DNA of 57,321 nucleotides from a virus. Its lineage: Duplodnaviria > Caudoviricetes. The translations under genes were made by a program, and so were the position numbers. Below are positions 1,872 to 40,684 of the stretch, one piece after another (within the stretch, counting starts at the first letter, position 1; each line of letters starts with the position of its first letter). The notes under the pieces were generated by a model. The model saw nothing but the letters and a program-made list of their open reading frames with translations. It was not told the DNA's origin and searched no databases. Location: IMG/VR virus record IMGVR_UViG_3300026097_000026, positions 1-57,321 of that record; one strand, written 5' to 3'.

Positions 1872-2119
1872 ATAATCACATAAAATTAACAGAAGAAGAA
1901 ATAAAAATTAGTAATGAAATTTATAATAAAAAAATTGAACATTTAATTAAGTTAGGTGAAATTAAACTTTCTGAAATTAACAATGAAAAGAAAACGGAGG
2001 AATCTTATTTTAATTTAACAGAAATAAATACCAGGGAAACTCAATTTTTAAATGAATTAAATAAAAAATATGGTCCTGGTACTGTAGACATATCAACACA
2101 TCAGTATATACAAAAGTAA
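1868..2119 (+). CDS. small coiled-coil hypothetical protein
   Basis: 83 aa, helical, ends LNKKYGPGTVDISTHQY; overlaps both neighbours (translational coupling). Confidence 0.6.
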   Translation: MNNHIKLTEEEIKISNEIYNKKIEHLIKLGEIKLSEINNEKKTEESYFNLTEINTRETQFLNELNKKYGPGTVDISTHQYIQK

Positions 2120-2934
2120 TGAAACAAATATTTTTTCAGAGTTCTTTACCAAGATCTGGTAGTACTTTATTACAAAACATATTAGGACAAAATCCAGATT
2201 TTTATACAACGCCTACATCAGGATTATTGGAAATGCTATATAGATCTAAAAATGCCTTTTCAGAATCTCCTGAATTTAAAGCACAAGATAAAGATATAAT
2301 GAAAAGAGCTTTTATGGGTTACTGTAAAGGCGCTTTAGAAGGATATTTTTCTAATATAACCAATAAAAAATATATAGTTGATAAATCAAGAGCATGGGGT
2401 GTTAATTATGATTTTTTAAATAGCTTTTATACTGATCCTAAGATTATTTGTATGATTAGAGATCCTAGAGATATATTTGCATCTATGGAAAAAAATTATA
2501 GAAAAAATCCTCACATTAATTCTGGCATTATTAATAATCCTGAGTTAAAAGGAACTACGGTTGAAAAGAGAATAGATCATTTTGCGACTACTCCACCAGT
2601 TGGTTTAAGTTTTGATTGGTTAAGGGATATCATATCACAGGAAATTTATAAAAAAATACTATTCATTAAATATGAAAATTTAACTAAAGAACCTCATGTT
2701 GAACTAAATAAGATCTATAACTTTTTAGGTGTAAACCAGTATGAACATGACTTTTCAAATATTGAACAAGTAACACATGAAGATGATAAAATACATGGTA
2801 TCTTTGGTGATCATATTATTAGAAACGAAGTTAAACCACTTAAATCAGATGCTAACAAAATATTAGGAATAACTGGTAGTAATTGGATTAGAAATAACTA
2901 TGATTGGTTTTATCAACATTTTAATTATTATTAG
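2119..2934 (+). CDS. PAPS-dependent sulfotransferase
   Basis: 5'-PSB loop SSLPRSGSTLLQNIL and 3'-PB motif MIRDPRDIFAS. Confidence 0.85.
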   Translation: MKQIFFQSSLPRSGSTLLQNILGQNPDFYTTPTSGLLEMLYRSKNAFSESPEFKAQDKDIMKRAFMGYCKGALEGYFSNITNKKYIVDKSRAWGVNYDFLNSFYTDPKIICMIRDPRDIFASMEKNYRKNPHINSGIINNPELKGTTVEKRIDHFATTPPVGLSFDWLRDIISQEIYKKILFIKYENLTKEPHVELNKIYNFLGVNQYEHDFSNIEQVTHEDDKIHGIFGDHIIRNEVKPLKSDANKILGITGSNWIRNNYDWFYQHFNYY

Positions 2935-2935
2935 T

Positions 2936-3559
2936 ATGATTTATGATTTAAATAATTTTTTTGATAAAGTTTTTTATATTAACTTAGATAAGGACATTAA
3001 TAGAAATAAAAATATTCTTAGCCAATTTAAAAAATATAATATAACAAATTACGAAAGAATTCCTGGTGTAGTTTTTAATAGTATACCTGATAAATCATTT
3101 TGGCGTAATTTTAATAAATTTGATGAAAAATATATCTTAGGTAGTATGGGGTGTAGGGCATCTCATAAATTAGCAATAGATATAGCAATAGAAAGAAATT
3201 ATCAAAAAATATTAATTTTAGAGGATGATATTTATTTTACAGAAGATCCAAATAAAATATTAAATCAAAATTTAAATACTCTTAGTAATTGGGATATGTT
3301 ATACTTTGGTGGAACTGTAGAAAATCATTTTAATGGTCAAATAGTAGGAGCATATGCTTATGGTTTAAACCGCAAATTAATTGAAGAATCTTATTTTATG
3401 TTACCTACATCAGGTATGGAGGTTGATAATTTTTATGCTAAAATACTTTATCATATGAGTTATAATAATAGCCCTATAGGCAAATACTTAATTAAGAAAC
3501 TTGACCCTTTTAATACAGTAAAGGTTAATTTTAACTATAAATCAAATATAAGAAATTAA
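2936..3559 (+). CDS. GT25-family glycosyltransferase
   Basis: FDKVFYINLD..R, GCRASH and ILILEDD motifs; start reassigned from 2900 to the in-frame ATG at 2936 just after the upstream stop. Confidence 0.8.
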   Translation: MIYDLNNFFDKVFYINLDKDINRNKNILSQFKKYNITNYERIPGVVFNSIPDKSFWRNFNKFDEKYILGSMGCRASHKLAIDIAIERNYQKILILEDDIYFTEDPNKILNQNLNTLSNWDMLYFGGTVENHFNGQIVGAYAYGLNRKLIEESYFMLPTSGMEVDNFYAKILYHMSYNNSPIGKYLIKKLDPFNTVKVNFNYKSNIRN

Positions 3560-4502: not shown

Positions 4503-4997
4503 ATGGCTAATACTGATAATAAATGCAAGGATCTCGAAGTAAGAGATTATTTTACAGAAAACGGATATAGTAAATCTAAAAATTCATTAGAAGATTTATA
4601 TTCGCTACAAGCAGAAACTCAAAAAATGTATTTTAAGAAACAAGGTCGTAAACCTTTTTCTGAAATGAATATAGGTGATGTTATTGATTTTCTTATGGTA
4701 ACTAATCATGCAATTATAGATGAACTTCATGAAATGGTAGATGCAGTAGGAGGTATTGATGATGGTGTAGGTAATGCAGCATGGAAGCCATGGAAGTCTG
4801 CTAATAAAGATATTAGACAAAAATCACTATCTGATTTATCACCAGGAGATCTTAAGGAACTTAAGATGGAGTGGATTGATGTAATGCACTTTGTATTTAA
4901 TGCAGGTTTAGCATTAGGAATAACACCTAAAGAATTTTATAATTACTACCTAAGTAAGAACGAAGCGAATTGGGAAAGACAACGAAATAATTACTAA
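4503..4997 (+). CDS. gp56: T4 gp56-like dCTPase/dUTPase (all-alpha NTP pyrophosphatase)
   Basis: IIDELHEM, AAWKPWKS, ELKMEWIDVMHFVFN and YYLSKNEANWERQRNNY are collinear with T4 gp56. Confidence 0.85.
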   Translation: MANTDNKCKDLEVRDYFTENGYSKSKNSLEDLYSLQAETQKMYFKKQGRKPFSEMNIGDVIDFLMVTNHAIIDELHEMVDAVGGIDDGVGNAAWKPWKSANKDIRQKSLSDLSPGDLKELKMEWIDVMHFVFNAGLALGITPKEFYNYYLSKNEANWERQRNNY

Positions 4998-5008: not shown

Positions 5009-6412
5009 ATGCTATTAGACATAACTCAAGAAGATAGACAATTATGGGTATCTTATTATAACTTAAATGGTGAAACTAGATTTAAAATATATGACTTAAA
5101 ACCTGATGATATGTTTAATTGGGAAGTCTGCTCAGAAGGTGATCCTAAAGCAGATCCAAAAATAACTAATTGGGATGGTAGACCGGTTAAAAAAGCTAGG
5201 TCTAGGTATTTAAATAAGTATCGTCAAATAGAATATTTATATTCATTACCTGAATCCGACAAGAAATTAATATATGGGTACTATTATCCTAAGACTTATT
5301 TTGTTGATATTGAAGTTGAGGTTACTGATTCATTCCCAGAACCTTCTAAAGCAGAAAACCCAGTAACAGCAATATGTATTGTTACTCCATCTAAGGAATG
5401 TATTGTTTTGGCTACTAAAGATTTAAGTAGAGAAAAGCAAAATAAAATACAAAAACAAATTGATGAACATTTTTCTAATTTAAATGAAACTTTTAGTTTT
5501 CATTTTAAACATTTTAAGTCAGAATATGATATGATGTATACCTTTCTTAAATCATTTGTTAGAAAAATGCCAATGATGACAGGATGGAATTATATTAATT
5601 TTGACTGGAAGTATATAATTACTCGATCAAGAAAACTTGGTATAGATCCTTCAATAGCATCGCCCATCGATCGTCTCTTTGGTAGGGATGAATTCCCATG
5701 CCATGTAGGTATAACCGATTATTTAGATATCTATGCAAAATGGGATAGAACTGTTGATATTAAAGAAGATTTTAAGTTAGATACAGTAGGTGAAGCTGTT
5801 GTTGGGGTTAAAAAGGTTAAATATGATGGCACTATCCAAGATATGTACGAAAGGGAGTATCCTAAATATATTTTTTATAATGCAATTGATACTGCATTGG
5901 TATATTTAATTCATAAAAAAATTAAAACAATGGAAATTGCTTTAACTATTGCTCATATGAGTGAAATTAGTATATTTAAAGCAAGTTCACCTGTTGCAAT
6001 TACTGAATCTTTATTAGCAAGAGAATTTTTATCATCAAACAGAGTTATGGCAAAAGATCCTAAAGCACCACCAGTAAAAAGACAACAATATGAAGGTGCT
6101 TTTGTTAAAGAACCTAAAACAGGTAAACACTCTGCTGTTGCTGCATTTGATTTTGCTTCACTATATCCTTCAATTATGAGACAATTAAATGTATCACCTG
6201 AGAGCTTTATAAAAAAGGTTGATTCTAACAAAAGAAAACAAGAAGAATCTGATGATAAAATTGTTTCAGTTACAGGAGCAGTATATTCTACTGAAAAATC
6301 AATTCTTAAAACAATATTAACAAGACTCTATTCACAACGACGTGAGTATAAGAAAACATCTTTTGAATTACAACAAAAAGCATATGACATGGAAAAAGAG
6401 CTTAAAGTCTAA
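5009..6412 (+). CDS. gp43A: family B DNA polymerase, N-terminal half (3'-5' exonuclease + motif A)
   Basis: ExoI FVDIEVE, ExoII GWNYINFDWKY, ExoIII YNAID, YEGAFVKEP, motif A FDFASLYPSIM; stops in the fingers helix; motifs B and C absent. Confidence 0.9.
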   Translation: MLLDITQEDRQLWVSYYNLNGETRFKIYDLKPDDMFNWEVCSEGDPKADPKITNWDGRPVKKARSRYLNKYRQIEYLYSLPESDKKLIYGYYYPKTYFVDIEVEVTDSFPEPSKAENPVTAICIVTPSKECIVLATKDLSREKQNKIQKQIDEHFSNLNETFSFHFKHFKSEYDMMYTFLKSFVRKMPMMTGWNYINFDWKYIITRSRKLGIDPSIASPIDRLFGRDEFPCHVGITDYLDIYAKWDRTVDIKEDFKLDTVGEAVVGVKKVKYDGTIQDMYEREYPKYIFYNAIDTALVYLIHKKIKTMEIALTIAHMSEISIFKASSPVAITESLLAREFLSSNRVMAKDPKAPPVKRQQYEGAFVKEPKTGKHSAVAAFDFASLYPSIMRQLNVSPESFIKKVDSNKRKQEESDDKIVSVTGAVYSTEKSILKTILTRLYSQRREYKKTSFELQQKAYDMEKELKV

Positions 6413-9270: not shown

Positions 9271-9711
9271 ATGAAAAAATATAATTTAGGATTTGTTGCA
9301 GGTAATTTTGATTTACTACACCCTGGGTATATTCATACTTTTGAAGAAGCAAAAAAGCATTGTGAAAGATTTATAGTATTTTTACAACGAGATCCATCTG
9401 AGCATAGAAAATCTAAATATAAACCTGTTATACCTGAATGGGATAGGTATAAAGCACTAATGTCTATCAGATATATTGATGAAGTATACATGTATCAAAC
9501 TGAAGAAGAATTGCTTGATTTAATAAAATATTGGAAACCTGATCTTAGGATTTTAGGAGAAGATTATATTGGCCAACCGTTCACTGGTGATGATTTACCT
9601 ATCAAAGTTATTTATACATCCAGGTCTCATAATTGGTCTACTACTAAATTAAAAGACTTAATTACTAAGCAGACTATAAAACAAAATCCTAGTATAATTA
9701 GTGAAGAATAA
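9271..9711 (+). CDS. HIGH-type cytidylyltransferase (TagD/RfaE-like)
   Basis: AGNFDLLHPGY (HxGH variant), SIRYIDEV, LGEDY, WSTTKLK. Confidence 0.85.
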   Translation: MKKYNLGFVAGNFDLLHPGYIHTFEEAKKHCERFIVFLQRDPSEHRKSKYKPVIPEWDRYKALMSIRYIDEVYMYQTEEELLDLIKYWKPDLRILGEDYIGQPFTGDDLPIKVIYTSRSHNWSTTKLKDLITKQTIKQNPSIISEE

Positions 9712-9722
9712 AATAAATAACA

Positions 9723-10223
9723 ATGAAACAGAAAACATCAGCAGGTTTAGCAATTATATATGATAATAAAATCCTACTAGCTCATCCTACTAATCGAAGA
9801 TGGTATAATTCATACGGCATTCCTAAAGGGGGCGTAGATAAAGGCGAAACTTATCTAGAAGCTGCAATACGAGAAACTAAAGAAGAAGTTGGGATTACGG
9901 TTCCTAGGAAAATAATAGATAAAAAAGAAAATACATTTTTTGTTTCATCTTCATCAAAAAAGAAAAAGAGTTATAATAAAATAGTATATTACTACATAGT
10001 TAAAATAGATAGCTTATCTCAATTAGGTATCAATGATTTAAGAATTTCTAAAAACCAATTACAGCTTGATGAGGTTGATTGGGCTGGTTTTTTAGATTAT
10101 GAAGAAGTACAAAAAAGAATAACACCATCACAAATACCATTGATAAATAATTTAATATCAAAGGGTCTATTAGAATCAACTGTATTAAATTATGAAAAAT
10201 TTACTGAATCCAAAAAGTCTTAA
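9723..10223 (+). CDS. Nudix hydrolase
   Basis: Nudix box GGVDKGETYLEAAIRETKEEVG. Confidence 0.9.
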   Translation: MKQKTSAGLAIIYDNKILLAHPTNRRWYNSYGIPKGGVDKGETYLEAAIRETKEEVGITVPRKIIDKKENTFFVSSSSKKKKSYNKIVYYYIVKIDSLSQLGINDLRISKNQLQLDEVDWAGFLDYEEVQKRITPSQIPLINNLISKGLLESTVLNYEKFTESKKS

Positions 10224-11268
10224 TTATAACGACTTATTAAATCGTGAACCTATTTTAACTAATAAAGATACAATCCTTTCTTATATTAAAGGGAAGAGAG
10301 TATTGGTCACTGGTGGTTGTGGGTCTATTGGTAGTGAAATCGTTAGACAATTAATAAAGTTTGAAGCAAGTTCTATTATTGTATATGATAATGCTGAAAC
10401 ACCTCTTTTTTATTTAGAACAAGAAATTTCTAAGTTTAATAAAAATATTCATATAAGATATGTAATTGGTGACGTTAGGGATAAAAATAGACTTAATGAA
10501 ATTTTTGAAAGCTTTATGCCTAATGTAGTTTTTCATGCAGCTGCATATAAACATGTTCCTATGATGGAGAGTAATCCAATAGAGGCAATAAAAACTAATG
10601 TATTAGGTACAAAAAATATATCAGATGTTTCGTATCACTATGGTATAGAAAAATTTGTAATGGTATCAACTGATAAGGCGGTTAATCCTACTAATATAAT
10701 GGGTGCTACAAAAAGAATTGCTGAAATTTATACCCAGTACTTAAATCAAAAATCAAATACACAGTTTATTACAACCAGATTTGGAAACGTTTTAGGAAGT
10801 CAAGGATCAGTAATTCCAACATTCATAGACCAAATTAACACAGGTGGTCCTGTTAGTGTTACACATAAAAACGTTATTAGGTATTTTATGACTATCCAGG
10901 AAGCTTGTCAACTTGTATTACAAGCTTCCTCAATCGGCAAAGGTGGTGAAATTTATTTATTTGATATGGGTGAACCTGTAAAAATATTTGATTTGGCTAA
11001 AAAACTTATTTCTTTAGCAGATGATGATGTTGGTATTGAAATTATTGGGTTAAGGCCTGGTGAAAAATTATATGAAGAACTTTTATGTAATGGTGAAAAC
11101 ACAATCCCAACAAAAGATCCTAATATTATGAAGCTTAATCATACTGAATTAAACTTTAAATCATTAATACCTGAAATAGAAAAATTAGCTGAAATTAAAA
11201 ATAATGATTTTTATAAAATAATATCAATAGTTAAAAATATAGTTTCAGAATTTAAAAGAGAATCTTAG
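10192..11268 (+). CDS. pglF: UDP-GlcNAc 4,6-dehydratase (PglF/CapD catalytic domain)
   Basis: TGGCGSIGSE, FHAAAYKHVP, STDKAVNPTNIMGATKR, RFGNVLGS, GLRPGEKLYEEL. Confidence 0.85.
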   Translation: MKNLLNPKSLNYNDLLNREPILTNKDTILSYIKGKRVLVTGGCGSIGSEIVRQLIKFEASSIIVYDNAETPLFYLEQEISKFNKNIHIRYVIGDVRDKNRLNEIFESFMPNVVFHAAAYKHVPMMESNPIEAIKTNVLGTKNISDVSYHYGIEKFVMVSTDKAVNPTNIMGATKRIAEIYTQYLNQKSNTQFITTRFGNVLGSQGSVIPTFIDQINTGGPVSVTHKNVIRYFMTIQEACQLVLQASSIGKGGEIYLFDMGEPVKIFDLAKKLISLADDDVGIEIIGLRPGEKLYEELLCNGENTIPTKDPNIMKLNHTELNFKSLIPEIEKLAEIKNNDFYKIISIVKNIVSEFKRES

Positions 11269-11269
11269 T

Positions 11270-11839
11270 ATGAGTGAAGTAAATATATTTGGTAAAGGTG
11301 GTCATGCAAAAGTTATAAAATCAATAATAGAACATAATATAGATGAGGAACTTGGTACTATTATGGATGATAAGGATTATTTAAAAATTGACACTGGCCA
11401 TTGGATAATAGGAATAGGCGATAATACAATTAGAAAGGAAAGAGCTTATGGTATATTAAAGAATGAATCTTTTTATACTTTAATTAGTAAATCTTGTATA
11501 CTACCAAAAGATAATAATATAGGTAAAGGTTCTGTCATATTTCATGGTGCGATTATACAAACAAATACTAAAATAGGAAATCATTGTATAATTAATACTA
11601 ATGCTAATGTAGATCACGACTGTGTTATTGGAGATTTTGTACATATTGCACCAGGTTGTACTTTATGTGGAAATGTTTCTATAGGTGAAGGGACTTTTAT
11701 AGGGGCTGGTACAACTATTATACCTGGAATTACTATAGGTAAGAATTGTATAATTGGTGCTGGTTCAACTGTAGTTAGAGACATTCCTGATAATACTAAA
11801 GCCTTTGGTAACCCTTGTACATTTAAAGAATTATTATGA
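11270..11839 (+). CDS. pglD: sugar N-acetyltransferase (PglD/NeuD family, left-handed beta-helix)
   Basis: GKGGHAKVI, GIGDNTIR, VDHDC and hexapeptide repeats. Confidence 0.85.
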   Translation: MSEVNIFGKGGHAKVIKSIIEHNIDEELGTIMDDKDYLKIDTGHWIIGIGDNTIRKERAYGILKNESFYTLISKSCILPKDNNIGKGSVIFHGAIIQTNTKIGNHCIINTNANVDHDCVIGDFVHIAPGCTLCGNVSIGEGTFIGAGTTIIPGITIGKNCIIGAGSTVVRDIPDNTKAFGNPCTFKELL

Positions 11840-12948
11840 AAAGGATATATTTATCACCTCCACATATGTCAGGCGATGAGCTTAATTATATCAAAGAAGC
11901 ATTTGATCAAAACTGGGTAGCTCCAATTGGACCACAACTTAATAAGTTTGAAGAGTTGGTTAAGACTTATGTAGGATCAAATCATGCAGTGGCAGTTAAT
12001 TCTGGTACAAGTGCAATTCATTTAGCTCTTAAAGTTTTAGGTATTAAAGAAAATGATACTGTTTTATGCTCTACTATGACATTCATAGGATCAGTTAATC
12101 CTATTTTATATGAAAGAGCAAATCCAGTTTTTATTGATTCAGAAAGTAATACATGGAACATGGATCCGTATTTATTAGAACAATCAATTATTGATTTAAT
12201 AAAGAAAAATAATAAACCAAAGGCGATACTTCTAGTTCATGTTTTTGGTATGCCTTCTAATTTAACTACTATTAAATCAATATCTGATTTTTATGGTATT
12301 CCCTTAATTGAGGATGCAGCTGAATCTCTAGGATCTACTTACAAAAATAAACATACCGGTACATGGGGTGATATTGGCATTTATTCATTTAATGGAAATA
12401 AGCTCTTATCTACATCAGGTGGTGGTATTTTAGTAACTGATAATAAAACTCTTGCAACTAAAGCAAGATTTTTATCAACACAAGCTAAAGAAGATAAGCC
12501 ATATTATTATCATAAAGAATTAGGTTATAATTATAGAATGAGTAATATTGTAGCATCAATAGGAATTGGTCAAATTAATGTAATTGAAGAAAGAATAAAA
12601 AGGACACGAGAAATTCATAAAATATATAAGAGTGAATTAGGAGACTGGTTTGATTGTATTTTAACTGAAGGTAATACTATTAGAAGTAACTATTGGCTTA
12701 CATGTGGCATTTCTAATGAGCGTTTTGAGCCAAATAAAATGATTAATCATTTAAATAATAAAAATATAGAAGCTAGGAGAGTGTGGTACCCGATGCATAG
12801 GCAGCCTATTTTATTTAACAGAACTAAATATATAAATGGAACTAGTGATAATCTATTTAAATGTGGTATATGTTTACCTTCAGGTTCTTCGATGTCAAAT
12901 GATGATTTAGGTAGAGTAATAGATTCTTTTAAAAAATATAAAAAATAA
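11836..12948 (+). CDS. pglE: DegT/DnrJ/PglE sugar aminotransferase
   Basis: IYLSPPHM, SGTSAIHLAL, IEDAAESLG, SFNGNK (PLP Lys), GYNYRMSN, CLPSGS. Confidence 0.85.
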   Translation: MKRIYLSPPHMSGDELNYIKEAFDQNWVAPIGPQLNKFEELVKTYVGSNHAVAVNSGTSAIHLALKVLGIKENDTVLCSTMTFIGSVNPILYERANPVFIDSESNTWNMDPYLLEQSIIDLIKKNNKPKAILLVHVFGMPSNLTTIKSISDFYGIPLIEDAAESLGSTYKNKHTGTWGDIGIYSFNGNKLLSTSGGGILVTDNKTLATKARFLSTQAKEDKPYYYHKELGYNYRMSNIVASIGIGQINVIEERIKRTREIHKIYKSELGDWFDCILTEGNTIRSNYWLTCGISNERFEPNKMINHLNNKNIEARRVWYPMHRQPILFNRTKYINGTSDNLFKCGICLPSGSSMSNDDLGRVIDSFKKYKK

Positions 12949-12949
12949 T

Positions 12950-13846
12950 ATGATATTTTCATACGAAGACTTTCTATTAAATGAAAGCGTCAATGATTCC
13001 AACTTTAGCATCCTATTAGAAGCTAATCTTAATAATAAAATTAACAAAAATATTAAGTTTGGTATTGTAATTCCTACTCACAAAATATCAGATGGTGCTG
13101 CGCAAACTGGTCGTAAAAACTTTATGAATACTCCTGATTTACTTAAGGCTTCATTAGGTTCAATTAGAGACCAGAAATATGACAATTATGTAGTTTATTT
13201 AGTTGGCGATGCTTATGATGGTGATGAAGAAATTAAAACTGTTATTAGTGAAGTTATGCCTCAGGGCAAATGTAAATTTCATAATATGAAAACACCAGGA
13301 GAAAGAAATAAAGGATATACAAAACAACAATTTAGGTATACTGCAGGTGCTGGCGCAATGAACAAGGGTTTAGAACTAGCAAAAAATGATGGTATTGACT
13401 ATATAGTTAGATTAGACCATGATGATAAATGGAAACCTAATCACCTTGAATTATTAGCAAAAGCATATACACAGTATCCTGAATTAGCTTATGTTTTTAC
13501 TAGAAGCAGAAAAAAAGTTGATGCTAATAATTCCTCAAAAAAGTTTATGTATCAACCTAGTGAAGAAAGACATATGACAAAAATTGAACCTAATAATTTA
13601 GGTTATACTCATGGTGATGTAAGTCATTCAGCTATGTCATGGAGACCTTCAATGACAGGGGATTTAAGATACAGAAATCCTGATCAACAAAGTAAAACTA
13701 ATCCTAAAATACCTTTAACAAAAACTATACAAGCTGATGTTGATATGTTTAAGAGAATGATGGATTCAATTAAAAAAGCAGGTCATAAATATATGTATAT
13801 ACCTAAATTAACAAGCTTTTATAGAAACCGAAAGGGAAAGTTTTAA
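12950..13846 (+). CDS. GT2-family glycosyltransferase with N-terminal capsid-targeting-like peptide
   Basis: FGIVIPTH, SIRDQKY, AMNKGL, YIVRLDHDDKW; N-terminus MIFSYEDFLLNES. Confidence 0.8.
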   Translation: MIFSYEDFLLNESVNDSNFSILLEANLNNKINKNIKFGIVIPTHKISDGAAQTGRKNFMNTPDLLKASLGSIRDQKYDNYVVYLVGDAYDGDEEIKTVISEVMPQGKCKFHNMKTPGERNKGYTKQQFRYTAGAGAMNKGLELAKNDGIDYIVRLDHDDKWKPNHLELLAKAYTQYPELAYVFTRSRKKVDANNSSKKFMYQPSEERHMTKIEPNNLGYTHGDVSHSAMSWRPSMTGDLRYRNPDQQSKTNPKIPLTKTIQADVDMFKRMMDSIKKAGHKYMYIPKLTSFYRNRKGKF

Positions 13847-14212: not shown

Positions 14213-14764
14213 ATGGAAAAATGTTTAATCATTGATTTTGATGATACTTTAATTAAAACTATTGAAGTTCATGCAGAAGCATGGAGGAAATCATTAAATA
14301 AAACTTTAGATATTGACATACCAAAGGATGCTATTCTTAACGATATAAATTATGGTATTAATTTATTGCATGAAAAGTTTCAATTAACTAAAGATGAAAT
14401 TAAAAAATCCTCACAACTTAAAAAAGAATTTTTTAACCAAACTTTACATAATACTAAAGTTAATGAAGTTTTATTTTACTTAATAAAGAGTAAAATATTT
14501 GACCATGTAATAATTGCTTCAAATTCATCTAAAGAAAATTTAACTAGACTATTACATTATCATAATATAGATTTAAATTTATTTAGTTTAATATTAACAC
14601 GAGATGATGTAAAAAATAAAAAACCGTATCCTGATATGGGTAACATTATTTTTGATGAATTCTCTGACTATGATAGAAGTGATTTTATTATGATAGGTGA
14701 TTCTGATGTTGATAAAATATTTTCCACAAAAATAGATATAAGATGCATAATGGTAAACTTTTAA
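14213..14764 (+). CDS. HAD-superfamily phosphatase/phosphomutase
   Basis: Motif I IIDFDDTL, IASNS, KKPYPD, IGDSDVD. Confidence 0.85.
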   Translation: MEKCLIIDFDDTLIKTIEVHAEAWRKSLNKTLDIDIPKDAILNDINYGINLLHEKFQLTKDEIKKSSQLKKEFFNQTLHNTKVNEVLFYLIKSKIFDHVIIASNSSKENLTRLLHYHNIDLNLFSLILTRDDVKNKKPYPDMGNIIFDEFSDYDRSDFIMIGDSDVDKIFSTKIDIRCIMVNF

Positions 14765-15489
14765 TTGGAAACAGCGGTGATAAAGTATATGTTGATAAAA
14801 ACATAGTAATTAAAACTGCTGGTGTACATAAAGATAAATTTAAACAACAAGCTAACTTTTTATTAAATTGCGATCATCCTAATTTTATTAATATAAAGAA
14901 AATAAATGATGAGGAATATCACATGGATACTCATCCAACATTTTACAATTTTATATGTAATTCTGATTTAGGTGAATCGTTGTATAGATTAGAAGAATTA
15001 TTAGATATCATAGATGGTTTTAACTCGATTGGCGCCGATGTAAAAACAGAAACATATCTTAATAAATTAGAAAGCAGAACAGGATATAAGTACAGTGGTA
15101 AGTTTGATGCAGCATCTTCTTATGGTTTTGTACATGGGGATTTAACAATAAGTAATATCTTGTATGATGATCGCTTTATCTTTATTGACCCGAGAGGTAC
15201 TGAAGAACAAAACTATTATGATTATGGAAAACTTATGCAGTCGTTTGTTATGAACTATGAAGCCCATATATACAATGAATGGAATCCTAAATATTTAGAG
15301 TTTTGTAAAGAAGCTGAAAAAATAATGTATGAAAGATATGATGAATATCAACTTAAATTCTTTTTGGCTGTTCATTTATTGGGAGCAGTACCTTTTTTTG
15401 AATTAAACGAAAGGTATGAAATGGCTAAGTTATTTTTAGAAAAAGGTCATTCATTATTTAATGAATTAGGAATAAAATATAGTAAATGA
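14743..15489 (+). CDS. APH/choline-kinase-like phosphotransferase (putative sugar kinase)
   Basis: Brenner motif VHGDLTISNIL, FIFIDPRG, YYDYGKLMQS. Confidence 0.8.
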   Translation: MHNGKLLIGNSGDKVYVDKNIVIKTAGVHKDKFKQQANFLLNCDHPNFINIKKINDEEYHMDTHPTFYNFICNSDLGESLYRLEELLDIIDGFNSIGADVKTETYLNKLESRTGYKYSGKFDAASSYGFVHGDLTISNILYDDRFIFIDPRGTEEQNYYDYGKLMQSFVMNYEAHIYNEWNPKYLEFCKEAEKIMYERYDEYQLKFFLAVHLLGAVPFFELNERYEMAKLFLEKGHSLFNELGIKYSK

Positions 15490-16196
15490 AAAATAAAGTA
15501 AAAAAAGCAATTATACTTGCTGCAGGTAAATCCAAAAGATATGGTTCAAATAAATTAACAGATCCTATTTTAGGAAAAACTACAGTACAATATGCTGTTG
15601 AATTTTGTATTGATAATGGTATAGATGATGTTTATATAACTATAAGTAAATCAGACTTCTTTTTTAAGAATTATAATACTAAATTGTCTCACCCAATTAT
15701 TGAAAGTTTATTATCATATAAAGATAAAATTAATATCTTTTATGAATTCCAAAAGGAAGATGAGTATGGTCCAGGCGCTGCTATTAAGGCATGGGAAGGT
15801 GCCTTTTATGAACCGTTTTTATGTTTATTTGGTGATAATTATTATGAAGGTAATATAGAGTTAGACAAACATAATCCTAATCAAACTATAATTACATATA
15901 AAGATTATGAAACTAGAGCTCGTAATTTACAATTGGCAACAATAATAGATGATGTTGTAGTTGAAAAACCCCATGGTGTAGTAAACGGTAGATATTTTTG
16001 TGGATATATGATATTTGCTAAAGAAGCATTTGATAATCTTAAAAATATTAAATTATCAGGTAGAAATGAATATGAAATTACACATCTCATAAACTCAATG
16101 AGCAATCCTCAATATAAAAAATTAAATATATGTTGGTACGATTTAACATATGAAGAAGATAAAAAAGTAATAGAAAGTATAATTAATAACAGTTAA
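15486..16196 (+). CDS. sugar-1-phosphate nucleotidyltransferase (RmlA-like)
   Basis: AIILAAGKSKRYG, LFGDNYY, VVEKP, SGRNEYEITHL. Confidence 0.85.
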   Translation: MKNKVKKAIILAAGKSKRYGSNKLTDPILGKTTVQYAVEFCIDNGIDDVYITISKSDFFFKNYNTKLSHPIIESLLSYKDKINIFYEFQKEDEYGPGAAIKAWEGAFYEPFLCLFGDNYYEGNIELDKHNPNQTIITYKDYETRARNLQLATIIDDVVVEKPHGVVNGRYFCGYMIFAKEAFDNLKNIKLSGRNEYEITHLINSMSNPQYKKLNICWYDLTYEEDKKVIESIINNS

Positions 16197-16197
16197 T

Positions 16198-17448
16198 ATG
16201 AAAGAAGTAAAACGCGTTGGGTTTTTCAAATTAGGAAAGGCTATAAAATTTAATGAAAAGAGCTGGAATGCTATTGGTGGTGATTGTGAACCTAAGCAGT
16301 TAATAACATCTATAGCAAAAAGAAATCCTAAAGTAGAATATTGGCTTCTTAGTCCAAATGATTTAGGTAAATTTAGAGCAAAGGAGACTCCAGTTAAAAG
16401 CCCTTTATTTGGTCCTTCTCCTGAAACAAGTTCTGTACCATCAAACATTAAAGAATTTCATTCACAAATGAAAGATCGCAAATCTATTGATGAAACTACT
16501 GATAAAATAAAATCATTAAACCTTGATTTTATTTTCTTTTATACTGGTCCTACTAGTACAGTTAATATTCCTAATTACATAAATAAAAAGGACGGTACCG
16601 GTATGGTTAAATCATTAGACTTTTTTAAATACTATGCAGCTCCTATTATTAAATCATTAAATGAAATTGAAAAAAGAATTCCTATAGTAGGTTTACTGGT
16701 TGATAATAGATTTACTATAAGCGCTAAAGATTTTCATGCTCATAATAGACCAACTTATTACCTAGCACAAAATAATTTTGAAAAAGAAGAACAATATTTT
16801 TCTAATCCTCCTAATAGAGATACTCTAACAATCAAATCTAAATTTGAATATTCAGGTATTGAAACTGTCTTTTTATTAGATAAGAAAAGATATGATATTG
16901 ATGAATTATTTGAAAAGAAAACAGAGTATTCTTTTGTAATGCTACAAAACCAAGGAAAGGGTTCGGGTGGTGGTATGGATAGATGGGATCCTGTTAGAGA
17001 TTATATTGTTGAAAATGACATAAAAACAGATATTTATGGAAAGTGGGATACTGAAATTAAAGAAAAATATCCTGAATGGTTTAAAGGTGAGCGTAGGATT
17101 GAATCTATGTCTGATGAATTAGTTAAAACTAAATATACTTTTTGTGTACCTATTAAAGAAGGGATGGTTACTTCAAAATATGCAGAAATGCTTCATTATG
17201 GAATTATACCATTTTTACATCCATCATACGACACTGAATACAATGTATTCCCTGAAGGTCATTTTATCAGATGTAAAAGCCCAGAAGATCTTAAAAAGAA
17301 AATTGAGTTTTTAGAAAGTAACCCTGATCACTATAAAAAATTATTTTATAATTTACAAAGTAAGTATATCAAGGATGAATACTATACTGGTGAACATGTA
17401 GATAATAAAATCTGGGATGCGTATAATAAAATAACAAATAACAACTAA
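16198..17448 (+). CDS. T4 DNA beta-glucosyltransferase-like (GT-B) DNA glycosyltransferase
   Basis: Collinear segments with T4 BGT as recalled: LLVDNRF/LFTDIRL, FEYSGIE/FEYFPIE, DIYGK/EFFGN, VTSKYAEMLHYGIIPFLHPSYDT/ITLRVWETMASDAVMLIDEEFDT. Confidence 0.7.
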   Translation: MKEVKRVGFFKLGKAIKFNEKSWNAIGGDCEPKQLITSIAKRNPKVEYWLLSPNDLGKFRAKETPVKSPLFGPSPETSSVPSNIKEFHSQMKDRKSIDETTDKIKSLNLDFIFFYTGPTSTVNIPNYINKKDGTGMVKSLDFFKYYAAPIIKSLNEIEKRIPIVGLLVDNRFTISAKDFHAHNRPTYYLAQNNFEKEEQYFSNPPNRDTLTIKSKFEYSGIETVFLLDKKRYDIDELFEKKTEYSFVMLQNQGKGSGGGMDRWDPVRDYIVENDIKTDIYGKWDTEIKEKYPEWFKGERRIESMSDELVKTKYTFCVPIKEGMVTSKYAEMLHYGIIPFLHPSYDTEYNVFPEGHFIRCKSPEDLKKKIEFLESNPDHYKKLFYNLQSKYIKDEYYTGEHVDNKIWDAYNKITNNN

Positions 17449-17458: not shown

Positions 17459-18481
17459 ATGTATAACAAAAATACAAAAATTTTAATAACCGGCGGTGCT
17501 GGTTTTATTGGTACTAACTTAATTAATGATTTACTTAAAAAAGGTCATAATCCTGACAGTATAGCAGTAATTGACAACCTATCACATGGTACTTTTTTAG
17601 ATGAAGTACATGGTAAATTAAAATATTTTTATAATGAAGATATCAGAAACCAATATGTAGAAAAAATTATATCAGATTTTAAACCTGAGTACATATTTCA
17701 TTTTGCTGGGTTAGTATCAATTTATGACTGTAATAGCAACCCATATGAAGCTGTTGATATTAACGTTTTAGGTAGTATTAACATTCTTAATGCAGCAGTT
17801 GAAAATAATGTTAATAGGGTCATTTTTAGTGAAACTTCAGCAGTTTACGAAAATTGTGAAATGGGATCTAATGGATATAATGAAAATCAATCTGATCCTA
17901 CCACCATATATTCAACTACGAAAGCATCATTGGCATTATTAGCAGAGTCATATGCTAGAACAAAAGGTTTAAAATATACTGCGCTAAGATATTTTAATGT
18001 AGCTGGACCTTTACAAGATTATGAAAGAACGGTACCTCCTGTGTTTGCTGGTTTTATTTTAAGAATTATGGGAGGGCATAAACCAATCATCTTTGGCGAT
18101 CCTATGAAGTCACGTGATTATATTGATGTTGATGATGTTAATGATTTTCATATTTTATGTATGAAAGATCAAAGAACAGAGAATCGTACATTTAATTTAG
18201 GTACTGGTAAAGATACAAACCTTTTAGAATTAAAGGATATTATAGGTGAATGCATGAATGTTAGTAATGTTCAGTATAATTCATATGATGCAATTGCAGG
18301 TGAGGCTGTAAATATTAAAGCTGATATATCAGCAGCCACTGAATTAGGATGGGTACCTAAGAACGATATTAAAGATACTATTAATAAAACAATAGATTAT
18401 CTTAAAAAAGAAGTAAAGGTAGGTAATATTAATCCTAAAACCTTTATGGAAAATATAGAAATAAAAAAGGTAAAAATATGA
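17459..18481 (+). CDS. NAD-dependent NDP-sugar epimerase/dehydratase (GalE-like SDR)
   Basis: ITGGAGFIG, IDNLSHG, YSTTK (YxxxK), LRYFNVAG, RDYIDVDD. Confidence 0.9.
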   Translation: MYNKNTKILITGGAGFIGTNLINDLLKKGHNPDSIAVIDNLSHGTFLDEVHGKLKYFYNEDIRNQYVEKIISDFKPEYIFHFAGLVSIYDCNSNPYEAVDINVLGSINILNAAVENNVNRVIFSETSAVYENCEMGSNGYNENQSDPTTIYSTTKASLALLAESYARTKGLKYTALRYFNVAGPLQDYERTVPPVFAGFILRIMGGHKPIIFGDPMKSRDYIDVDDVNDFHILCMKDQRTENRTFNLGTGKDTNLLELKDIIGECMNVSNVQYNSYDAIAGEAVNIKADISAATELGWVPKNDIKDTINKTIDYLKKEVKVGNINPKTFMENIEIKKVKI

Positions 18482-19743
18482 GCAAAGAAAATATAAAATT
18501 TGGTACTATAATTCCATTAATTGGAGGTAGTGCAATAGGTTGTTCACAGTCGGCTGGTGTTAAGCCTACGTTTCATTTAAGTTATGATGCATTTGCAGCA
18601 AATGAAAGCCATCTAGAAAAATATTGGGATGATGTACCTATGTACAGATTAGATCAACCTGACTTAGAAATACCAAAAAATACATTCGAAAATGTAGACT
18701 ATATAAATAGTGTTTGCCCATGCGCTGGTCTTAGTTTATTAAACTCAGCAAGTGGAAGCTCTGCATCACGAGGTTCAGATGCAGTTCAAAATAAATGGAT
18801 GTATGATTCGTCAAATTATATTTTAGAAAATGTTAAACCTAAAGTACTGTGGGGTGAAAATGCTCCAGGATTATTTACTAAAATGGGAGAAGGTGTAGTA
18901 AAGAGATTAAGGGAAATTGGTGAACAGCATGGGTATAGTTTTTCATTAATAAAAACCAATACTGAATTGCATGGTATCCCACAAAGAAGAATGAGAACTT
19001 TTTACTTTTTTTGGAATACTCCAACTGTACCTATGTTAAACTGGAAATTTAGAGAAAAAAGTAGTTTATTGGACTATTTAAATAAAATACCAGAGTCTGC
19101 TACACTTCAAGATATGTTTATGGTTAATGGTAATGTAACCGAGCACTTTAGGCCTTATGAATTTGTTTTAGAAAAAGAAGGTTTAACTCATTTTGAATTT
19201 TCTAAAAAAATTAAAAAAGGTACAATTTCACAATATTTGGAAAAAAATAAATTGGTTGATGAATGTATAGAGTGGTTAAAGGAAAAATATCCTAATGAAG
19301 GGTTTTCTAATAAAAAGAGTACAAAAACATTTATTGATATGTTGGAGCATCAGAAAGCAAAAGTTGCTGACGGTAAAGGGTATTGGGATGCATCTCCTCA
19401 CTTTTTTCATGATTCTTTTTCTGCGTTAATTGGTCGTAATATGTTTAATGGTGTTCACCCGGTTGAAGATCGTTATTTAAATGTAAGAGAAATGCTTCAT
19501 TTAATGGGAATGCCGCATGATTTTGAAATCAGTGATCCTAGGCATGTTAATCATATTGCACAAAATGTACCAGTAAGAACGGCACAAGATATGGCAGATG
19601 AAGTTAAGAATTTTTGTTTAGGCAATGCTAAGATGACTAATTATTCTTTTATGAAACAGGATAATACTAAACAAAAAATAATCTACTCTGAAGAATATAA
19701 TAGCACTCCTAAGAAAAAATATAGAGCTCAAAAAATAATTTAA
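18478..19743 (+). CDS. C5-cytosine DNA methyltransferase-fold enzyme with atypical cofactor-binding motifs
   Basis: Motif IV CPCAGLS, VI GENAPGL, VIII HGIPQRRMRTF, IX RYLNVREMLHLMGMP, X IAQNVPV; motif I reads IIPLIGG instead of LFxGxGG. Confidence 0.8.
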   Translation: MSKENIKFGTIIPLIGGSAIGCSQSAGVKPTFHLSYDAFAANESHLEKYWDDVPMYRLDQPDLEIPKNTFENVDYINSVCPCAGLSLLNSASGSSASRGSDAVQNKWMYDSSNYILENVKPKVLWGENAPGLFTKMGEGVVKRLREIGEQHGYSFSLIKTNTELHGIPQRRMRTFYFFWNTPTVPMLNWKFREKSSLLDYLNKIPESATLQDMFMVNGNVTEHFRPYEFVLEKEGLTHFEFSKKIKKGTISQYLEKNKLVDECIEWLKEKYPNEGFSNKKSTKTFIDMLEHQKAKVADGKGYWDASPHFFHDSFSALIGRNMFNGVHPVEDRYLNVREMLHLMGMPHDFEISDPRHVNHIAQNVPVRTAQDMADEVKNFCLGNAKMTNYSFMKQDNTKQKIIYSEEYNSTPKKKYRAQKII

Positions 19744-19750: not shown

Positions 19751-20746
19751 ATGAAAGATAATGTATTAGCCATAGGTGTATCACATAGGGATCATTTTAG
19801 TATAATGATGGCATATTACCCTAAAGGTATACATGAAAATTTTGACATTGTACTATTTGTTGATAATCGTAATGATATTTTACAAGATATAAAAGATCTT
19901 ATTGATCATTATAATATTCCTGCATTTAAAAATGCAAAAATAGTTATTAATACTAAAATGATGGATGAATATTCATCAAAGTTTAGTCTTAGTGAAAGAG
20001 GTCATAAATTTTTATTTGAATATTCTGCTTGCTTTAAGTTACTTGTTCCCATTTACTTAAGAGAACATTTTAATACTAAAAAGACTTTTGCTATAGATGA
20101 TGATATTTTTATTTTAAGAGACTTAAGTCCATTATTTAATAAATATCAAGGTTGGGTATTTAAAAAGGAAAATTTATTTGATTTTAAAAATAAAAATAAA
20201 CATAGAGTACTTAAAGAATTTAATTCTGTTTTTAACTCTAATTTTACTCTTTCACAAATGGATTCTTTGTCATTAAATAGTGGAACTATTATATATGATA
20301 ATTATGATGATAAGTATCCAGAGTATGTGAAAAAATTTATTGAAAATGATTATATCCAATCAATGTTTTTTGACCATACTGGTTATAGTGCATGGACAGT
20401 AGAGCAAAGATTTCAGCATTTTAATATGCATAGACTAATGAAAGAAAGAAATGATACAAAACTGTTTGAAGGTAAGGAGGTTAGACTTATTACGAGTCTA
20501 GGAAAGGAAAAGGAAGGTGATAAATTTCTTAAGATAGTGGTACCATATTTAATTCATTATACCGTTGGTGTTAAAAAACCTCTATGGCTTAGAAAATTTA
20601 TTCCTGGGATTGCTTGGAGATTTAATAATTATCAGTTTACTCCTAAATTTGAACTTAAAGATATTCTCTATAATAAACATTGGGAGCCTACACGGTTTAA
20701 ATTAATACATAAGAAAAAGAAAGAAAAAGTTAAATCTTTATTCTAA
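19751..20746 (+). CDS. GT8-like (GT-A) glycosyltransferase
   Basis: FAIDDDIFIL (DxD), LNSGTII, EQRF, LIHYTVGVKKPLW follow the GT8 motif order. Confidence 0.6.
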   Translation: MKDNVLAIGVSHRDHFSIMMAYYPKGIHENFDIVLFVDNRNDILQDIKDLIDHYNIPAFKNAKIVINTKMMDEYSSKFSLSERGHKFLFEYSACFKLLVPIYLREHFNTKKTFAIDDDIFILRDLSPLFNKYQGWVFKKENLFDFKNKNKHRVLKEFNSVFNSNFTLSQMDSLSLNSGTIIYDNYDDKYPEYVKKFIENDYIQSMFFDHTGYSAWTVEQRFQHFNMHRLMKERNDTKLFEGKEVRLITSLGKEKEGDKFLKIVVPYLIHYTVGVKKPLWLRKFIPGIAWRFNNYQFTPKFELKDILYNKHWEPTRFKLIHKKKKEKVKSLF

Positions 20747-21634: not shown

Positions 21635-22777
21635 ATGACTGATAAGGAAAAGCAATTAAAAATTCAAGAAATAGAGGAAACTAAATACCAAGCTTCCCTT
21701 TTTATGAATAAAGAACAAGCTGTAAAATTAATGTTAAATAGTATTTACGGTGCATTTGGTAATCCTTATTTTTATTTCTTTAATGTAGATATTGCTGAAA
21801 CAATTACATTACAAGGTAAAGATGCAATATTATATACTGAAAAACTTCTTAATAAGTATTTCACTGAATTCTGGCATAAAGATTTAGATTTACATAAGAA
21901 GCTAGGAATAACCGTAACAGGTAGAATTGAAAATCCTGTGGGTATTTACATTGATACTGATTCCGTCTATGTTAAGTTTGAAGAAGTAATTAAAAAATCT
22001 GAAGGTTGGTCTGGTGATGAAAAGCAATTTATATTAAAGTTGTATGAATTAAGATTAAGAGATTATATTGAAAAAATCATGCAAAAATATGCTGATGATA
22101 ATAATGCTGAAAACTTCTTAAGCTTTGAATTAGAAAGTATTGCAAAAAATGCAATTTGGTTAGCCAAGAAAAAATATATGCAAAATATAGTTTGGAAGGA
22201 TCCTGACATTCACTATGATGATTTATCAAAAATTAGTGCAAAAGGATTTGAAATTATTCAATCATCAACCCCACTATTTGCAAGAGAAAAACTTAAAGAT
22301 TTATTAACATACATTTTTTCTGTTGAAAAATTAGATATGAAAGAGTTTTCTGCTCTTCTTAAAAAAATCAAAAGAGAATTTAGGTTAGCTAATGTTGATC
22401 AAATAAGTTTTTCAAAAAAGGTAAATAATTATCAAAAATATATTGTTAGTGATTATGATGCTTTTGAAATTGCATCTAGGTGCCCTATTGGTGTTAGGTC
22501 AGCGGGCTATCATAATTACCTTTTAAATAATTCAGGGCTCAAGGGTAAATATCAACCGCTAGGTAACGGTGAAAAACTTAAAATGTATTTTTCTGAGGAT
22601 ACTACTTGTGATGTATTTGCATATAGCCCTGGTGATCATCCTTACGAATTTGCACCTTCTGTTGATTATGATAGGCAGTTTGAAAAAACTATTTTGGATC
22701 CTATTAATAGAGTAATTGTTGCAATGGGATTTAAAGGCTTTAATCGTAATCTTATTTATACAACAAGTCTTTTTTAA
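21635..22777 (+). CDS. gp43B: family B DNA polymerase, C-terminal half (motifs B, C, thumb)
   Basis: Motif B KLMLNSIYGAFG, ITLQGK, motif C YIDTDSVY, AKKKY, KGFEIIQSSTP. Confidence 0.9.
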   Translation: MTDKEKQLKIQEIEETKYQASLFMNKEQAVKLMLNSIYGAFGNPYFYFFNVDIAETITLQGKDAILYTEKLLNKYFTEFWHKDLDLHKKLGITVTGRIENPVGIYIDTDSVYVKFEEVIKKSEGWSGDEKQFILKLYELRLRDYIEKIMQKYADDNNAENFLSFELESIAKNAIWLAKKKYMQNIVWKDPDIHYDDLSKISAKGFEIIQSSTPLFAREKLKDLLTYIFSVEKLDMKEFSALLKKIKREFRLANVDQISFSKKVNNYQKYIVSDYDAFEIASRCPIGVRSAGYHNYLLNNSGLKGKYQPLGNGEKLKMYFSEDTTCDVFAYSPGDHPYEFAPSVDYDRQFEKTILDPINRVIVAMGFKGFNRNLIYTTSLF

Positions 22778-40192: not shown

Positions 40193-40684
40193 ATGTACAA
40201 GGTTAGAAAAATCAATTTTGGGTGGTACAGAAGGCGGCATGGTATTCTTTTAGAAAACTTGCCGCCTTTAAAGAAAAAGTTACTCATAGATCATGATCAT
40301 ATGAAATGGTTAAATTCCGATGTTCAGGCATTTGAGGTTATTTTTAAAGTTGAAGATCACAACGACCATGAAAGAAAAACTCGTAAGGTTTTTTGGAATC
40401 CTTTTAGAGAAACTTTTACAAAAATTAAACAAATAGAAAAAGATTCAAATCTAGTAGATTGGAACTGTGCAATATGTAAAGAACCAATTAAGTCAAGAAT
40501 GAGCTTTAAAAAGATTGAAAACTTTGTTTGTAATAAATGTAGAGAATCTCATAATTCAAAAAATAAACAAATTGACCAAAGAATTATAGATTCTACTAAT
40601 AAGTTTATGAAACATTGTAAAGGTCTATTAAGAAGGGAGCAACGTGAATTTATAAATTATGCAAAAAAATCATCAAAGAGATAA
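40193..40684 (+). CDS. hypothetical basic protein with C4 zinc finger
   Basis: CAIC...CNKC. Confidence 0.6.
   Translation: MYKVRKINFGWYRRRHGILLENLPPLKKKLLIDHDHMKWLNSDVQAFEVIFKVEDHNDHERKTRKVFWNPFRETFTKIKQIEKDSNLVDWNCAICKEPIKSRMSFKKIENFVCNKCRESHNSKNKQIDQRIIDSTNKFMKHCKGLLRREQREFINYAKKSSKR

Follow-up and report, generated by a model that had tools for sequence, protein, structure and literature searches.

The MT-like enzyme encoded at positions 18478-19743 (+ strand) of the viral record IMGVR_UViG_3300026097_000026, called here the window (the whole stretch of DNA that was analysed, 57,321 nucleotides), belongs to a clade that, judging by its gene neighbourhoods, is a conserved component of a predicted T4-type cassette for making 5-hydroxymethylcytosine (hmC, 5hmC) and glycosylating it. 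The predicted fold is that of the C5-cytosine DNA methyltransferases (C5-MTases), whose catalytic residues are kept, and the motifs that contact the cofactor S-adenosyl-L-methionine (SAM) in such enzymes are rebuilt. The most economical reading of the gene content is that this enzyme is not needed as the source of the hydroxyl group to which sugars would be attached. The open reading frame (ORF) is a real gene; its ATG overlaps the stop codon of the upstream epimerase gene (ATGA), and the next ORF begins 7 nt past its own stop codon.

Fold and catalytic residues of the MT-like enzyme

The MT-like protein matches the Pfam family PF00145 with 71.8 bits (cut-off 22), and the match starts at profile position 10, past motif I. 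The AlphaFold2 model, made from 120 relatives, has a mean predicted local distance difference test (pLDDT) score of 94.5, and the top matches in a Foldseek search against the PDB are all C5 DNA methyltransferases (MET1, DIM-2, M.HhaI, M.HaeIII, DNMT1), with the phage enzyme CmoX at rank 31. On the strength of this model, the C5-cytosine DNA-methyltransferase fold can be predicted with confidence.

Motifs were mapped by an hhalign alignment of the family profile with E. coli Dcm, motif X being taken from the HMMER alignment with M.HaeIII, and conservation was counted among 120 representatives of 31-81% identity. In the alignment with Dcm, motif IV (P81-C82-A83-G84-L85-S86) corresponds to P-C-Q-P-F-S, motif VI (E127-N128-A129) to E-N-V and motif VIII, which is retained (Q169-x-R171-x-R173), to Q-H-R-E-R. 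C82, E127, R171 and R173 are each found in 120/120 relatives, and Q169 in 118/120. A preliminary description of this DNA, made from the letters alone, had already recognised a C5-MTase fold with intact catalytic motifs, and the PF00145 match, the model with its Foldseek matches and the conservation among the relatives all agree with it; the structure prediction that it had proposed as a check led to the same fold.

Source of the hydroxyl group

The preliminary description had also suggested that the MT-like enzyme may supply, with no TET dioxygenase involved, the hydroxyl group used by a neighbouring homolog of the T4 beta-glucosyltransferase (BGT). The Tet_JBP domain (PF12851) has no match in the window, and none of the 94 records with relatives (0/44 and 0/50) contains a match over the cut-off, in searches that had no positive control. 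Among the 44 records are S-TIM5 and Bacillus phage G, both as complete genomes, and a 360-kb record with terminal repeats; the sole Tet_JBP signal in these records is one 13-bit match. This part of the description is thus borne out to the extent that such a result is suggestive of TET absence from MT-like loci.

A different source of the hydroxyl is indicated by homologs of thymidylate synthase. Matches to this family occur in 22 of the 44 records, with mostly low scores, typical of divergent homologs. According to PMC13326640, Asp residues at the positions of L143 and N177 of E. coli ThyA, with D169 kept, mark T4-type dCMP hydroxymethylases, and the same signature separates them from thymidylate synthases and 5-hydroxy-dCMP synthases; this was checked for 15 divergent ThyA homologs, and 15/15 show D/C/D/D at residues 143/146/169/177. 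Proximity to the MT-like gene was assessed with a local hidden Markov model at a distance of at most 7.2 kb, loci with an upstream flank of at least 5 kb being regarded as well-flanked. In the first set of loci a hydroxymethylase is nearby in 34/82 loci overall and in 25/32 well-flanked loci outside the window lineage; in the second set, two loci of which lie on the same contigs as two of the first, the counts are 45/71 and 39/40, respectively. The hydroxymethylase is also present at 10/13 loci from contigs of metagenome-assembled genomes (MAGs) or genomes, and a dCMP-type ThyA homolog is found in 5/5 complete or near-complete genomes carrying the family.

Within the window lineage a hydroxymethylase is nearby in 0/16 well-flanked loci. 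The single contig of this lineage that reaches far enough, G002, with an MT-like protein that shares 82% identity with that of the window, has a gp42-type hydroxymethylase; synteny equates window positions 52044-57321 with 60.0-62.6 kb of G002, and the hydroxymethylase gene lies at 78.3 kb, about 15.6 kb beyond the point that corresponds to the window end. Its neighbours are a guanylate-kinase-family gene, a weakly matching dNMP-kinase-like (P-loop) gene and an ATP-grasp gene. This ATP-grasp ligase gene (positions 2313-3314 of locus L090, which is from G002) stands directly 3' of the hydroxymethylase gene and could serve amide-type tailoring. A gene for a gp56-type dCTPase lies in the window itself and occurs in 17/45 records.

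In more distant loci (35-39% identity) a frequent gene order comprises the genes of the hydroxymethylase, a dCMP deaminase, a weakly matching uracil-DNA glycosylase (UDG)-like protein, a T4-type alpha-glucosyltransferase (AGT) of the family PF11440, a short-chain dehydrogenase/reductase (SDR), the MT-like enzyme and UvsX. The cultured carriers of the family are Pseudoalteromonas phage vB_Psh_XG4 (XG4), cyanophage S-TIM5 and Bacillus phage G. A 7.6-kb stretch of XG4 encodes the hydroxymethylase, a nucleotidyltransferase-kinase fusion, a BGT-like glycosyltransferase, a second GT-B glycosyltransferase, the MT-like enzyme and a dCTPase, and Bacillus phage G encodes, within 15 kb, the MT-like gp301, the alpha-glucosyltransferase gp306, a nucleotidyltransferase and a HAD protein (gp309/gp310) and gp319, which has the hydroxymethylase signature. 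In S-TIM5, the protein gp076, annotated as a thymidylate synthase (positions 1483-2319 of locus L086), is encoded 2.4 kb from the MT-like gp080; its residues corresponding to L143 and N177 are Cys and Asp (C143/D177), so that it probably acts on dCMP, with an uncertain product, and is probably no true thymidylate synthase. The accessible part of the literature on S-TIM5 held nothing relevant to modification of its DNA.

With a gp56-type dCTPase in the window, a gp42-type hydroxymethylase in G002 and the hydroxymethylase linkage in the well-flanked loci of both sets, the hydroxyl handle would most simply be made before replication, as in T4, and the role of hydroxyl supplier, as first ascribed to the MT-like enzyme, is no longer called for. 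The phage DNA would accordingly be expected from gene content to carry hmC. Direct hydroxymethylation by the MT-like enzyme, which would place a hydroxymethyl or hydroxyalkyl substituent on C5 of DNA cytosines and create or complete the handle after replication, the donor being a SAM analogue, a formaldehyde equivalent or a one-carbon unit of the folate type, now appears quite unlikely. The remodelled cofactor motifs and the Tet_JBP result speak for it; the kinase fusion of the protein P0304, described below, would be sensible if 5hmC on DNA were the product of the MT-like domain; a eukaryote-like clade, known from proteins and transcripts alone, has no hydroxymethylase seen beside it; and the conversion of stray C to hmC would give the glycosyltransferases one uniform substrate. 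Nevertheless, in nearly every well-sampled locus the gp42-type enzyme would already supply the hydroxyl, and hydroxymethylation by the MT-like enzyme is therefore unneeded for the purpose first proposed; the dCMP-type ThyA homologs of all five complete or near-complete genomes weigh in the same direction, no folate-binding feature was identified, and the strongly conserved pocket residues speak for a bound cofactor and not for free formaldehyde. C5-MTases are capable of aldehyde chemistry in vitro, a point for which the literature search gave no usable source.

Neighbouring glycosyltransferases

The glycosyltransferase GT416 of the window has only a sub-threshold Pfam match. Its AlphaFold2 model, of medium confidence (pLDDT 74), retrieved T4 BGT at ranks 1-6 and T4 AGT at rank 7 in a Foldseek search against the PDB, so the BGT homolog placed by the preliminary description beside the MT-like gene is recovered as a predicted likeness at the level of the fold. 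The GT416 sequence alone gave only chance-level matches to the PDB. A link to T4 AGT at the sequence level was considered and set aside: a profile that included gp306 of phage G matched AGT at 2e-13, the profile without gp306 had no PDB match, and the hhalign comparison of the gp306-free GT416 profile with gp306 was not significant. The link depends on the presence of gp306 in the profile, and therefore only a fold-level likeness to BGT/AGT is claimed.

In loci of the L039 type, an AGT of the family PF11440 (114.5 bits) is encoded directly 5' of the MT-like gene. A BGT-like or AGT-like glycosyltransferase is present in 58/82 loci of the first set and in 41/71 of the second. Co-occurrence with BGT and a lack of TET had been suggested as a check of the preliminary description; the former is addressed by these counts, which include AGT-like enzymes, and the latter by the Tet_JBP searches.

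Rebuilt cofactor-side motifs

In motif I, I12-P13-L14-I15-G16-G17 aligns with F-A-G-I-G-G of Dcm, and only the GG of FxGxGG remains; P13 is found in 117/120 relatives and L14, G16 and G17 in 119/120 each. The reading of FxGxGG as IPLIGG in the preliminary description is in the same register. In motif X, A361-Q362-N363-V-P-V aligns with G-N-A-V-P-V of M.HaeIII, so that Gly is replaced by Ala and the conserved Asn by Gln, followed by Asn; Q362 occurs in 119/120 relatives and N363 in 115/120. In the change from GN to QN noted earlier the register was off by one, the alignment giving AQN. Two further changes had been overlooked: PCQ of motif IV became PCA (position 83 is A in 95, S in 19 and G in 5 of the 120 relatives), and ENV of motif VI became ENA, with A129 in 120/120.

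The acidic position of motif II, which in canonical enzymes closes strand 2 and binds the hydroxyls of the ribose, had been identified with the last residue of HLSYD, an assignment that conservation does not uphold, position 37 being variable (S29 D23 P18 K13 E11 T11 among the 120). The residues conserved nearby are S35, an aromatic residue at 36, F39, N42 (114/120) and D/E43 (115/120), the last of these located one helical turn after position 37. Just past strand 3, where the canonical adenine-binding Asp sits, D59 is D in 85, N in 14 and E in 10 of the 120. Motif IX is present, and family-wide invariants also occur in the specificity-determining stretch that separates it from motif VIII. On the whole, the observation that the SAM-contacting motifs differ has been strengthened, since the alterations are systematic and conserved across the relatives; with the altered states found in 95-120 of 120 diverse proteins, they mark a distinct, essentially virus-specific clade and are not due to chance.

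In M.HhaI, Gln82 and Asn304 flank the transferable group, and the Q82A replacement lowers methylation about 16-fold and raises activity with an extended cofactor 4-fold (PMC3526304). The Ala that replaces the gatekeeper Gln of motif IV mirrors engineering of this Q82A type and could point to a modified SAM from which a larger group is transferred, in the manner of CmoX with carboxy-SAM. The changed Asn position of motif X also fits such a transfer, CmoX having Arg at that position; nonetheless, the residue here is Gln and not Arg or Lys, and CmoX retains the adenosine-binding Phe, Glu-Phe and Asp, which the MT-like family does not at the expected places. In addition, no gene resembling CmoA, the carboxy-SAM synthase, and no other SAM-modifying gene was found by Pfam among the 48 ORFs scanned in the window, which is a fragment (10 ORFs were left out), or among the scanned cassette neighbours, and the eukaryote-like clade would require the same unusual cofactor. 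The transfer of a larger group is very unlikely on balance.

Family size, distribution and phylogeny

A word-index search yielded 1499 proteins at E <= 1e-5 among 3672 candidates, and an exhaustive search of representatives at 50% identity yielded 986, 627 and 331 at E <= 1e-3, 1e-10 and 1e-30, respectively. Pattern scans of IMG/VR confirmed at least 404 relatives (of 600 matched stretches) and at least 565 (of 599). A scan of one genome per species for 185,579 prokaryote species found 13 loci only, with two strict peptide patterns that may have missed divergent cellular members. These loci comprise 10 phage-like contigs in MAGs, one lambda-like prophage in a Victivallis isolate, the called ORF of which lacks motif I, one 1.2-kb contig and one canonical methylase (an outgroup); no restriction-modification context was seen at these 13 loci. 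Judging from these searches, the clade appears large, essentially virus-specific and nearly absent from cellular genomes. Locus L025 carries two tandem MT-like paralogs (9965-12381), which belong to different subclades of the tree.

A sister clade (P0043, P0065, P0121, P0122, P0290, P0296), which shares 52-62% identity with the window protein, carries CXXC or C2H2 zinc fingers on long C-terminal extensions and keeps all the hallmarks of the family; it includes six transcripts from a transcriptome assembly of the copepod Neocalanus flemingeri. A FastTree phylogeny, built from 147 sequences, places this zinc-finger-tailed clade as sister to the window lineage (support 0.868) and nested in the phage clade, which looks like a transfer from phage to eukaryote, or to a virus or associate of a eukaryote.

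Two fusions, known as predicted proteins alone, are also of interest. P0304 (889 amino acids), from a 22-kb metagenome contig, has the helical domain of 5-hydroxymethyl-dU DNA kinases (PF18723, HMUDK; 42.7 bits) at its N-terminus, fused to a typical MT-like member. P0264 (838 amino acids) combines a dsRNA-type C2H2 zinc finger with a divergent MT-like domain (motif I PNAGG, motif X QGVPV), and C-terminal to this domain it has a Tet_JBP match of 22.8 bits, below the cut-off.

The fusion of a hydroxymethyl-pyrimidine DNA kinase domain to an MT-like domain in P0304 would suit an enzyme acting on 5hmC in DNA. Cys82 would attack C6, the 5-CH2OH group or its phosphorylated form would leave, an exocyclic methylene would form, and a co-substrate bound by the rebuilt pocket would add to it, producing an hmC-derived hypermodification with no methyl transfer of the SAM type. 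The near-obligate linkage to a gp42-type hydroxymethylase in well-flanked loci is in line with this chemistry; the dCTPase of the window lineage implies few unmodified cytosines; and the changed positions (Q82 to Ala, N304 to Gln, V of ENV to Ala) flank C5 and the transfer path in M.HhaI (PMC3526304). It is also relevant that SAM-free C5-MTases can derivatise 5hmC with thiols in vitro. On the other hand, minimal cassettes (hydroxymethylase, dCMP deaminase, AGT, SDR and MT-like enzyme) have no conserved gene for a nucleophile or co-substrate, the eukaryote-like clade (proteins and transcripts) and the lambda-like prophage copy occur with no hydroxymethylase nearby, and a natural precedent was not found in the literature; nor do we know of any for a 5hmC-directed reaction of a C5-MTase fold. 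This reaction is therefore considered rather unlikely.

Proposed function

The explanation that we favour, tentatively and with considerable doubt, is a post-replicative capping at C5 of residual cytosines by a back-up methylase that binds SAM atypically. The gp42-type dCMP hydroxymethylase would make the 5-hydroxymethyl handle before replication, with kinase-like genes beside it and the gp56-type dCTPase assisting by destroying dCTP; BGT/AGT-like glycosyltransferases would then attach sugars that the sugar-nucleotide genes nearby provide. The MT-like enzyme would flip out a cytosine, Cys82 would attack C6, and a one-carbon group would be added at C5 of those cytosines that escaped pre-replicative replacement. 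We infer SAM in the atypical pocket as the most likely donor and 5-methylcytosine (5mC) as the product, which would form a second protective layer.

Several observations are consistent with the methylation of plain cytosine from SAM. It is the base rate among PF00145 proteins; the GG of motif I, D/E43 (115/120) and D59 (85/120) are retained; the zinc-finger-tailed clade keeps the hallmarks of the family, and no hydroxymethylase was seen with this clade, as known from its proteins and transcripts; and P0264 has the weak Tet_JBP match after its MT-like domain.

A number of points weigh against a back-up methylase. If the dCTPase and the hydroxymethylase replace all cytosine, as in T4, there would be little substrate for a C-directed methylase, and the family nevertheless shows strong purifying selection and a fixed position in the cassette. 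CmoX contacts SAM through the Phe of motif I, the Glu-Phe of motif II, the Asp of motif III and the position of HhaI N304 (PMC12783734); at the expected MT-like positions these contacts are changed or unconserved, and for motifs II-III neither HMMER nor hhalign produced an alignment with canonical enzymes. The Gln of motif IV is Ala, Ser or Gly in 119/120 relatives, to be compared with the slower methyl transfer of M.HhaI Q82A. The kinase fusion of P0304, as a predicted protein, is more easily reconciled with a role directed at hydroxymethyl groups than with plain methylation. Finally, the window, a fragment estimated to be about 20% complete, contains neither a thymidylate synthase (PF00303) nor ThyX (PF02511) nor a hydroxymethylase.

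Non-methyl chemistry, either on 5hmC or by transfer of a hydroxymethyl or larger group, is thus a live alternative to the back-up methylase. We regard it as a serious, if doubtful, possibility that the family is not a methyltransferase and carries out a new post-replicative step on hmC-DNA through attack of the Cys at C6, with a pocket for a ligand other than SAM, and that the eukaryote-like lineage acquired the enzyme from phages of the window lineage. The step could be a substitution at the 5-CH2OH of hmC in DNA or a direct hydroxymethylation of stray cytosines.

A donor-less enzyme that acts on unmodified host cytosine, by covalent trapping or by deamination of C to U, so as to damage or mark host DNA, and spares the hmC-containing phage DNA seems most improbable. 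C5-MTases deaminate C when SAM is absent; plain C would be found only in host DNA if replacement were complete; and some cassettes contain a weak ORF of the UDG superfamily (E 0.0014), a match that is below the threshold. The high conservation of P13, L14, N42, D/E43, Q362 and N363 suggests a ligand, however, and no experiment or phage precedent supports such an activity. A small share of the probability is assigned to none of the readings considered here.

Organisation of the window

The window derives from a marine T4-like phage, with a G+C content of 25-33%, and nearly all its genes lie on the + strand. The markers of T4-like myoviruses include a gp20-type portal, a gp23-type capsid protein, a gp21-type protease and gp15-like proteins; a Rad50/Mre11 pair, a RecA/UvsX-like recombinase, a DnaB-like helicase, a clamp loader and a ribonucleotide reductase are encoded as well. 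The features of the region around the MT-like gene are as follows:

2119-3559: sulfotransferase and GT25 glycosyltransferase genes, 5' of the N-terminal half of the polymerase
4503-4997, + strand: homolog of the T4 gp56-type dCTPase, with 32-33% identity to annotated gp56 of T4-like phages across 97% of its length
5009-6412, + strand: split family-B DNA polymerase, N-terminal half
9271-13846, + strand: sugar gene block (cytidylyltransferase-like protein, NUDIX protein, PglF-like 4,6-dehydratase, hexapeptide acetyltransferase, DegT aminotransferase, GT2 glycosyltransferase)
14213-14764, + strand: HAD phosphatase, likely involved in sugar activation
14743-15489, + strand: kinase-like protein with weak APH-type matches only, likely involved in sugar activation
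15486-16196, + strand: nucleotidyltransferase, likely involved in sugar activation
16198-17448, + strand: GT-B glycosyltransferase GT416, 416 amino acids, nearest solved folds T4 BGT and then T4 AGT
17459-18481, + strand: NAD-dependent nucleotide-sugar epimerase/dehydratase, its stop overlapping the MT-like start
18478-19743, + strand: MT-like enzyme with the predicted C5-cytosine DNA-methyltransferase fold, 421 amino acids, catalytic Cys82/Glu127/Arg171/Arg173
19751-20746, + strand: 331-amino-acid protein (orf331) of no Pfam family, with an invariant DDD (DxD-like) motif
21635-22777, + strand: split family-B DNA polymerase, C-terminal half

The halves of the polymerase are about 15 kb apart, and the ribonucleotide reductase, the block of sugar-nucleotide and glycosyltransferase genes and the MT-like ORF lie between them. 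A split gene 43 also appears in the annotation of Aeromonas phage 44RR2.8t, and at locus L021 the C-terminal half is apparently broken again by a 390-amino-acid ORF. The products of the sugar genes at 9271-13846 may be destined for DNA; the sulfotransferase and GT25 genes would imply sulfated sugars only if the glycans end up on DNA. The place of the kinase-like and nucleotidyltransferase genes is occupied by the kinase-nucleotidyltransferase fusion in phage XG4, and an SDR gene adjoins the MT-like gene in many distant loci too. The 331-amino-acid protein, whose gene is kept beside the MT-like gene within the window lineage, is possibly a GT-A glycosyltransferase, judging by its motif; its profile had no match in the PDB. 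The sole sizeable gene-like ORF on the minus strand (40673-41458) has an MptE-like match of 32 bits, below the cut-off of 34.6.

Comparison with known systems

The T4 pathway (gp42, gp56, gp1, AGT and BGT) has counterparts in the dCTPase of the window, the hydroxymethylase and kinase-like genes of its relatives and the AGT-family and BGT-like glycosyltransferases, and the phages with MT-like genes have a far larger set of sugar-nucleotide genes. To our knowledge, T4 has no enzyme of the C5-MTase fold.

The fold, the Pro-Cys and Glu-Asn pairs, QxRxR and motif IX are common to the MT-like family and the PF00145 enzymes M.HhaI, M.HaeIII and Dcm, whereas FxGxGG, PCQ, ENV and GN(A/S) of the latter are replaced by IPLIGG, PCA, ENA and AQN, and the family lacks a conserved acid at the usual place of motif II, the conserved D/E43 lying one helical turn after position 37. 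Its target-recognition region is conserved clade-wide, and no locus has a restriction-modification context.

CmoX (PDB 8YF3) is a phage DNA cytosine C5-carboxymethyltransferase, which makes a handle for hypermodification and is paired with CmoA (PMC12783734). Both CmoX and the MT-like enzyme are phage proteins of the C5-MTase fold with a changed residue at the position of HhaI N304; CmoX has Arg there together with canonical adenosine contacts, whereas the MT-like family has Gln (119/120) and non-canonical contacts.

The phage C5-MTases described by Burke et al. 2021 (PMC8256090) produce 5mC on which an adjacent TET acts, and those found active are GpC-specific. Marine cassettes of this kind, with C5-MTase, glycosyltransferase, epimerase and cytidylyltransferase-type genes near a polymerase gene, resemble the present ones (see also the preprint by Pyle et al., 2023). 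On the basis of gene content, the difference is that the partner here would be a pre-replicative dCMP hydroxymethylase and that no Tet_JBP match reached the cut-off in 94 records, in searches that had no positive control. In the full-text literature, searched with the supplements of the most relevant papers not covered, no description of the MT-like family or of its linkage to the hydroxymethylase was found, and the MetaGPA paper makes no mention of DNA_methylase.

Significance

Two routes to cytosine hypermodification in phages are currently recognised, a pre-replicative one that uses thymidylate-synthase homologs and a post-replicative one that uses a C5-MTase and a TET. The present clade is a large viral group of the C5-MTase fold that appears to be integrated into the pre-replicative route, which offers no obvious substrate to a methylase; the puzzle is that invariant catalytic residues and a fixed cassette position are maintained in phages whose cytosines should already bear a substituent at C5. 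A natural pocket with Ala in place of the gatekeeper Gln may be of interest for the enzymatic labelling of DNA. Once resolved, the reaction would represent either a back-up layer of DNA protection or a new type of DNA modification reaction.

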